Shown in pieces: positions 33,853-34,576 of a DNA stretch of 64,000 nt. Both the position numbers and the translations under genes were made by a program. Location: UHGV virus genome UHGV-1362809. The stretch is one strand, 5' to 3'. Origin of the DNA: a virus. Under the pieces are notes generated by a model. That model was not told where the DNA came from. It searched no databases and worked only from the letters and a program-made list of their open reading frames with translations. Each line of letters opens with the position of its first letter. Position 1 is the stretch's first letter.

Positions 33853-34576
33853 TTACTCCTTTGCCTTAATACGTCTTTTAGATAATTGATAGTATTCTTC
33901 TTTTATCTCTGACCCAACGAATTTTCTACCAAGTTTAGTACACGCAACTCCAGTAGTACCCGAACCCATAAATGGATCCAAAACTATGTCCCCCCTTTCG
34001 GGAACAATTTTTAATACACTGTTCTATCATTTGTAGAGGTTTAATTGTAGGATGCCCATACAACTTTTTATCCTTATGATTTATAGGATGAATCCAGTGA
34101 GTCTTTGCATCCTCATAACAACTTGGTTTGCACATCCCTTTACCGTTATGAAAATATAGGCAATACTCTGTATCAGATAAATACTTATTAGAATAGGTTG
34201 GTAGGGCATTAGGTTTATGCCAGCATAACAATACATATTTACATTTGTACTGTTCTACAAACACTTTAAGCAAAGGATAAACTTGCTTAATACTGCACCA
34301 AACAAATAGGTTTATATTATCTTGGAGTTTATCCACATAATCGGCAAAAACTTCAATATCAAAACCGTTAATAAGATTATCTTTACTTAATTGCTGAAGA
34401 GATTTATTTAGTCCTTTTTTATTATTAATAGAACCACCTGTATTTATTCTATCTAATTGATATGGTGGATCAGTAACAATTAGATCAAACTTCTTACCTT
34501 CTACAAACCATTTTTTAAACAGCTTAAAGCAATCAGCATTGTATAGAAGACATTTACCAATTTTCTTATGTTTCAT
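33853..34576 (-). pseudogene. beta-class DNA methyltransferase (DPPY) disrupted by a frameshift at a G6 (plus-strand C6) tract
   Basis: The track ORF 33935..34576 carries LIVTDPPYQ but ends ...SRKGGHSFG.... The other frame (33853..33990) encodes DIVLDPFMGSGTTGVACTKLGRKFVGSEI. The frames join at the C6 run 33990..33995; five C would give an intact ~240-aa enzyme. Confidence 0.7.

Follow-up and report, generated by a model that had tools for sequence, protein, structure and literature searches.

Phage orphan DNA methyltransferases have been described as anti-restriction devices, and a methylation that protects DNA can also render it susceptible to Type IV enzymes (PMC12707154). In the bacterial phasevarions of Haemophilus, Neisseria, Helicobacter, and Campylobacter, the reading frame of a methyltransferase (mod) gene is set by the length of an intragenic simple repeat. 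For contingency loci, a cut-off of at least 7 nt is applied to poly-G/C tracts by PhasomeIt, and even tracts at this cut-off may be too stable for efficient switching (PMC6321876). Programmed +1 frameshifting, as in bacterial prfB, represents a further described system. The closest enzyme of solved structure, M1.HpyAVI from Helicobacter pylori (PDB 5HEK/5HFJ, deposited as 'DpnA'), is a beta-class N6-adenine DNA methyltransferase.

The locus analyzed here lies in a stretch of 64,000 nt (the window) from an uncultivated jumbo phage of ~237 kb. It holds a disrupted beta-class N6/N4 DNA methyltransferase gene, designated MTase 1, in which the reading frame breaks at a run of six G residues. The G6 allele is probably a real, strain-specific loss-of-function frameshift in an accessory orphan methyltransferase of this phage. 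The data give no sign of readthrough at the break or of a tract that evolved as a switch.

The interrupted methyltransferase gene

MTase 1 (33853..34576, minus strand) would encode a protein of 240 aa if one G were removed. As it stands, the 0-frame ORF (33935..34576, minus strand) encodes 213 aa, consisting of the native residues 1-195 and an 18-aa missense tail, GHSFGSIYGFGYYWSCVY*, which ends at a TAA stop. The remainder of the gene, D196-E240 (GDIVLDPFMGSGTTGVAC...KAKE*; 33853..33990, minus strand), lies in the +1 frame and is reached by skipping one base. The break coincides exactly with a G6 homopolymer (33990..33995, minus strand), the site of a 1-nt insertion relative to natural G5 alleles; the coding strand around it reads ...AAA AAT TGT TCC CGA AAG GGG GGA CAT AGT TTT GGA TCC.... 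Both the sequence and the ORF coordinates bear out the initial annotation, which had placed the break at this run (C6 on the given strand).

Motif IV (DPPY) occupies residues 36-39, inside the native part, and motif I is absent from the 213-aa product. Motif I, VLDPFMGSGTTG, the SAM-binding loop, is carried by the +1-frame remainder, where GAC ATA GTT TTG GAT CCA TTT ATG GGT TCG GGT ACT ACT encodes D-I-V-L-D-P-F-M-G-S-G-T-T; the earlier remark that motif I is intact in the adjacent frame was correct (DPFMGSGTT). No uninterrupted ORF at this locus holds both motifs, the 0 frame ending at 33935 and motif I being read in the +1 frame. A TTG-initiated ORF of 42 aa (33853..33981, minus strand) starts at motif I, with the G run located 8 nt upstream as a Shine-Dalgarno-like element.

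The GC content of the window is 34.9%, and GGGGG was matched at 17 positions versus 42 +/- 7 expected in shuffled sequences, indicating depletion of G/C runs. Only two runs of at least six G/C occur in the 64 kb, the G6 run and an intergenic G8 run at 12395..12402. Given this depletion, the G6 run is no compositional commonplace.

Following removal of one G, the 240-aa sequence matched Pfam family PF01555 (N6_N4_Mtase) with 118.4 bits (cut-off 26.7) and an E-value of 5.7e-34 over profile positions 2-220 of 221, confirming the DPPY (beta-class) methyltransferase identity assigned before. DPPY at residues 36-39 lies N-terminal to FMGSG at 202-206, the order of the beta permutation. The gene is co-linear, as had been proposed, with its intact PF01555 paralogue MTase 2 (31766..32464, minus strand; 232 aa; Pfam 2.7e-27), to which it is 39% identical end to end (residues 1-237 versus 1-230). 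M1.HpyAVI (5HEK/5HFJ) was the best solved homologue, with an E-value of 8e-28 and residues 11-237 aligned, and the segment lost from MTase 1 holds DIVLDPFMGSGTTG, identical to motif I of that enzyme. From the missing motif I, we infer loss of activity: MTase 1 is a member of the beta-class N6/N4 methyltransferases that is predicted to be non-functional in the window strain.

MTase 1 is part of a tight minus-strand block with 4-nt start/stop overlaps. The block runs from a putative small NPPY methyltransferase (35621..36097, minus strand; PF02384 N6_Mtase, E 0.012, 15.4 bits versus a cut-off of 20.4) through an MmcB-like nuclease-fold protein and an MT-A70 family methyltransferase (DPPW; 34573..35142, minus strand; PF05063, 8.3e-26) to MTase 1, and continues with two unknown ORFs, thymidine kinase, MTase 2, and the large terminase with an intein. 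The MT-A70 gene is directly upstream of MTase 1, and its stop overlaps the MTase 1 start (ATGA). Five or six methyltransferases had been counted at first; the 64-kb window shows one MT-A70 gene and three genes of the PF01555 family, of which two are broken, as well as an NPPY candidate that scores below threshold.

Several further features of the genome were recorded. The large terminase (28221..31751, minus strand; 1176 aa) contains an intein with a faint LAGLIDADG signal, and the anaerobic ribonucleotide reductase NrdD region, located at 17085..19651 of the related strain locus L020 and called as several ORFs, also gave intein matches; together, these signals point to a genome rich in inteins. 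The ResIII helicase gene (49982..53399, minus strand) consists in L020 of one 795-aa ORF whose intein is contiguous. In the window strain, an ORF of ~1 kb (347 aa, ~51375..52384) is inserted in this intein in another frame, which puts intein-N and intein-C on separate ORFs. The inserted ORF is endonuclease-like, with a weak match to PF18741 (REase_MTES_1575), and the insertion is polymorphic (present or absent) among strains with 95-98% identity in the region. The arrangement resembles a 'fractured gene', in which a split intein is combined with a free-standing homing endonuclease (PMC2677866). Secondary BLAST matches revealed dispersed repeats of ~155-183 bp with 82-84% identity (4919..5072 versus ~12961..13114, and 14299..14480 versus ~56294..56476), which may represent paralogous genes of the DUF7487 type or repeats of gene 5' regions.

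Alleles of the tract in related strains

Homologues were sought among 5.8 billion proteins using the repaired 240-aa sequence. Intact orthologues of 240 aa were obtained at 99% (P0001), 85% (P0002), and 72% (P0003) identity. The 90%-identity cluster of MTase 1 comprises 12 variants, of which 11 are 240 aa long and occur on 29 contigs; the twelfth is the exact 213-aa product of the window and was recorded only on the ~237 kb JGI and ENA contigs.

All strain-level evidence was drawn from exact-protein matches in Logan, ENA, and JGI assemblies, since locus searches of other contig collections gave nothing or distant relatives. An exact-pattern scan for any tract length (TTGTTCCCGAAAGG-N2-6-ACATAGTTTTGGATCC) returned no match in viral_contigs or metagenome_contigs, and protein-guided locus searches of metagenome_contigs, viral_contigs, and genome_contigs returned only distant relatives of at most 50% identity, none of which pointed to a host. 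Megablast of the MTase 1 locus against GenBank phages gave no match, tblastn with MTase 1 gave homologues at 44% identity or less, and the large terminase is ~37% identical to that of Pseudomonas phage PaBG. Judged at the sequence level, the phage is new and the MTase 1 feature ordinary.

The tract was read in DNA fetched for 19 loci. Seven near-identical loci (L001, L009-L011, L013-L015) carry GGGAG, five (L012, L016-L019) carry G5, and G6 was found in the window and two contigs (L007 and L008) only; the tracts of orthologues are AGGGG at 85% identity and AGGAG at 72%. It had been anticipated that a G5 tract would restore a full-length enzyme, and natural G5 alleles encode exactly the 240-aa protein obtained by removing one G. 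As the in-frame state, G5 applies to the five loci mentioned; other close relatives carry GGGAG instead.

Alignment of the window with L001 gave 99.2% identity over 4541 columns, with 34 mismatches and the extra G as the sole indel. The extra G was likewise the sole indel relative to every other near-identical strain locus except L009, which shows one further gap. Nine sites between 35134 and 33258, four of them within the gene, are fixed differences between the GGGAG and G5 groups, and the window has the G5-group base at all nine. These linked SNPs place the window on the G5 haplotype, making G6 a G5 tract plus one G. Besides the extra G, the only private change in MTase 1 is the doublet ACA>GTA (34233..34234, minus strand; alignment columns 343-344), resulting in Thr115Val. 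This single private non-synonymous change suggests that inactivation is recent, and the strain alignment shows no decay signature that would prove the gene dead.

Across 32420..35836, the strain haplotypes are mosaic. The window is of the G5 group between 35134 and 33258 and agrees with the GGGAG group at several sites on either side (35502, 35247, 33144, 33115, and 32623-32420, among others). This pattern indicates recombination among co-circulating strains.

The allelic series is consistent with an origin in two steps. A synonymous GGA>GGG change would have turned the ancestral AAG-GGA-GAC (GGGAG) into an uninterrupted G5, and replication slippage would then have added one G in one lineage (G5>G6). 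The frame shifts directly behind Gly195, immediately ahead of motif I, the SAM-binding loop (FxGxG). With motif I lost, a product of 195 native residues and an 18-residue nonsense tail should be catalytically dead, and the target sites of MTase 1 would stay unmodified in the G6 strain. The series GGGAG > G5 > G6 would thus be a clear natural case in which a synonymous change makes a slippage-prone run and the run then kills the gene.

Alternative readings of the G6 run

The two G6 contigs are ENA ERZ27229744 (contig k119_39996, 237,192 bp; L007) and JGI 3300045988 (237,166 bp; L008). Over 20,291 + 6,642 + 3,000 bp, the ENA contig and the window differ only in the intergenic poly-G (12395..12402), where the former has G10 and the latter G8; the JGI contig has G8, like the window. 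Because they differ at this tract, the ENA and JGI contigs are separate reconstructions of the strain, which may share a sample or reads.

A sequencing artefact, in which the true sequence is G5 with an intact gene or G6 is the majority call in a mixed population, is improbable. The nearest haplotype does have G5 with otherwise identical flanks, and the G6 contigs, identical over ~30 kb, may stem from one read set; yet two assemblies in different assembler naming styles (MEGAHIT-style k119 at ENA, and JGI) agree on G6. Assemblies of the window genome do disagree at another poly-G, but that disagreement is confined to the considerably longer G8/G10 tract. A further point against an artefact is that short reads seldom yield consensus errors at G6. 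No further indel occurs in 4.5 kb relative to the closest strain, and a paralogous methyltransferase of the same genome has a 4-bp deletion, a type of change that homopolymer errors do not produce. A base-calling error, named as an alternative in the initial annotation, is made less likely by the agreement of the two assemblies and by this deletion. That the assembly is error-prone at homopolymers in general was rejected, with one indel in 4.5 kb versus L001; the extra G being the sole indel relative to near-identical strains other than L009, general homopolymer noise is absent. Indels relative to the more distant L020 are mostly intergenic or lie where the sequences have clearly diverged.

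The intergenic poly-G at 12395..12402 (minus strand; G8 in the window) was used as an internal control for a hypermutable tract. Its alleles in ten loci from different samples (L032-L040) are G6, G7AGG, G8, G9, and G10, in addition to the G8 versus G10 difference between the two assemblies of the window strain. The tract makes up the 5' side of a strong hairpin (-27.5 kcal/mol, z -2.45), which is followed by UUUAAUUU (context 12335..12412). This terminator-like element lies downstream of the ORF at 12442..13113 and ~120 nt upstream of the ORF at 11674..12273. As a candidate length-variable regulatory tract, it is more convincing than the MTase 1 run, and it could also be a hard-to-sequence site.

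MTase 1 could instead be a true contingency locus, at which the phage population toggles the gene ON (G5) and OFF (G6) by slipped-strand mispairing and thereby diversifies its methylome. Homopolymer switching of methyltransferases is well known in bacteria (PMC12707154), but the present tract, G6 in the window and G5 in ON alleles, is below the cut-off of 7 G/C (PMC6321876). The ON and OFF alleles share one haplotype background; nevertheless, the tract is not kept in the sister haplotype (GGGAG) or in the orthologues at 85% (AGGGG) and 72% (AGGAG) identity. G runs are otherwise avoided in the window genome, and the highly length-variable poly-G elsewhere suggests that the phage replication machinery slips on G runs. 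Unlike that G8/G10 tract, however, the MTase 1 run shows no length difference between the two assemblies of the strain. The uninterrupted ON tract is G5 in five of five loci, and there is a single OFF lineage, with G6 in both of its assemblies, which amounts to a single state change among ~30 contigs. The other methyltransferase knockouts, a 4-bp deletion and a nonsense codon, arose by irreversible routes. A contingency locus is unlikely on these grounds. The proposal of a phase-variable or programmed-slippage site was not upheld, the tract being short and unconserved, with one OFF strain in ~30 contigs and no recoding signal.

A homopolymer frameshift is intrinsically revertible, and the difference between an ordinary knockout and a low-rate switch is a matter of degree. 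It is conceivable, though quite unlikely, that short new G runs act as low-rate reversible switches, the G5<->G6 run of MTase 1 and the hairpin poly-G at 12395..12402 forming a phage 'phasevarion'. In that case, a minority of the virions in every burst would be methylated differently, as a bet-hedging measure for meeting either classical restriction systems or modification-dependent (Type IV) ones in the host.

Rescue at the level of expression, whether by a +1 ribosomal frameshift on G-GGG-GGA, by transcriptional slippage dropping one G, or by re-initiation at TTG 33981 to give a two-piece enzyme, is very improbable. A tRNA-Gly on GGG in the P site can shift one base downstream and pair there without a mismatch, with a product identical to wild type, but no rare or stop codon occupies the A site and the shifted arrangement is not conserved: a single in-frame ORF is seen in 11 of the 11 other cluster variants (29 contigs) and in every homologue listed. 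The Shine-Dalgarno-like G run does lie 8 nt ahead of an in-frame TTG, which starts right at motif I; the 60 nt on either side of the tract, however, are identical in in-frame and out-of-frame alleles, which leaves no allele-specific recoding signal and no sign of a dedicated stimulator having evolved. Transcriptional slippage typically needs long A/T runs, which counts against that route. A known recoding RNA element or stimulatory structure was rejected following an Rfam search at the tract, in which the sole match was a chance miRNA (E 0.38), and a shuffled-fold test of the 100 nt downstream (-18.3 versus -18.1 kcal/mol in shuffles, z -0.06). The -1 frameshifting considered in the initial annotation has the wrong direction, the downstream frame requiring a +1 (or -2) shift. 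Spontaneous +1 slippage of tRNA-Gly or TTG re-initiation, if it occurs, would be incidental.

Probable loss of methyltransferases and comparison with described systems

MTase 1 is accompanied by a second disrupted PF01555 gene, MTase 3 (46564..47360, minus strand). A 4-bp deletion at ~47089 splits it into an N part of 96 aa with DPPY (47070..47360, minus strand) and a C part of 154 aa with motif I (46564..47028, minus strand). Compared with L020, in which the gene is intact (266 aa), the change is GACTATAAATATGAC -> GACT----ATATGAC. Intact 266-aa orthologues exist (P0141, 98%), and the MTase 3 fragments were found only on ~237 kb contigs. In strain L021 (SRR25571675), MTase 3 carries TGG>TAG at Trp58 (L021 1000..1260, ~47190 in the window), most of the upstream 306-aa ORF (window 47357..48277) is missing, and MTase 1 is intact (GGGAG). 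The loss of MTase 3 in L021 is an independent inactivation. Taken together, the 4-bp deletion and the nonsense codon mark methyltransferase inactivation as recurrent and mechanistically diverse. MTase 2 is 232 aa long in 10 of 11 cluster members; the remaining member, of 168 aa, is on a contig of 1.7 kb.

What the three PF01555 paralogues have in common is the N-terminal part with DPPY and the C-terminal part with motif I, and MTase 3 aligns with MTase 1 only there. This partial alignment suggests that the paralogues differ in target specificity. An S-adenosylmethionine synthetase with three MetK Pfam domains is located at ~42758..43831 (minus strand; mapped from L031 13530..14603). A phage SAM synthetase fits a heavy investment in DNA methylation.

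Recurrent, ordinary loss of dispensable accessory orphan methyltransferases of the anti-restriction type is the best reading of these data. Fixed pseudogenisation, listed as an alternative in the initial annotation, fits best given the allelic series, the haplotype linkage, and the second broken paralogue. Such losses may be driven by fluctuating selection: an orphan methyltransferase would be useless where the host has no cognate restriction enzyme and harmful where the host carries a modification-dependent (Type IV) nuclease. Near-identical jumbo-phage strains differ in which orphan methyltransferases are intact, through a 1-bp slip, a 4-bp deletion, or a nonsense codon, which suggests rapid turnover of the methylation repertoire, probably in step with the restriction systems of the hosts. 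Taken alone, the G6 allele is an ordinary frameshift knockout of an accessory gene, and its modest value lies in this population picture. For annotation, both pieces of MTase 1 should be recorded as one pseudogene (frameshifted methyltransferase) and not as two proteins.

MTase 1 resembles M1.HpyAVI in motif order, with DPPY (IV) toward the N-terminus and DIVLDPFMGSGTTG (I) toward the C-terminus, and in length (~232-240 aa). Similarity outside the conserved motifs is modest (HMMER ~100 bits), and the central target-recognition region differs, so that the recognition sequence of M1.HpyAVI is not transferable to MTase 1. The window copy further differs in being frameshifted, phage-encoded, and without a partner endonuclease.

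With programmed +1 frameshifting of the prfB type, MTase 1 shares the need for a +1 shift and a G-rich Shine-Dalgarno-like element at the site; unlike prfB, it has no conserved shift, no slow or stop A-site codon, and no allele-specific stimulatory signal. As in the phasevarion mod genes, the frame of a methyltransferase depends on the length of an intragenic simple repeat, and ON-length and OFF-length alleles are both natural. The MTase 1 tract, however, has 5-6 G versus the usual length of at least 7-8, is unconserved, and shows one OFF allele in ~30 contigs, and its carrier is a lytic-type jumbo phage and not a host-adapted bacterium. The genome shares with carriers of phage orphan methyltransferases, the anti-restriction enzymes described previously (PMC12707154), the presence of several methyltransferase genes without an adjacent endonuclease, together with a phage SAM synthetase; it differs from them in that the window strain has two of its three PF01555 copies inactivated.
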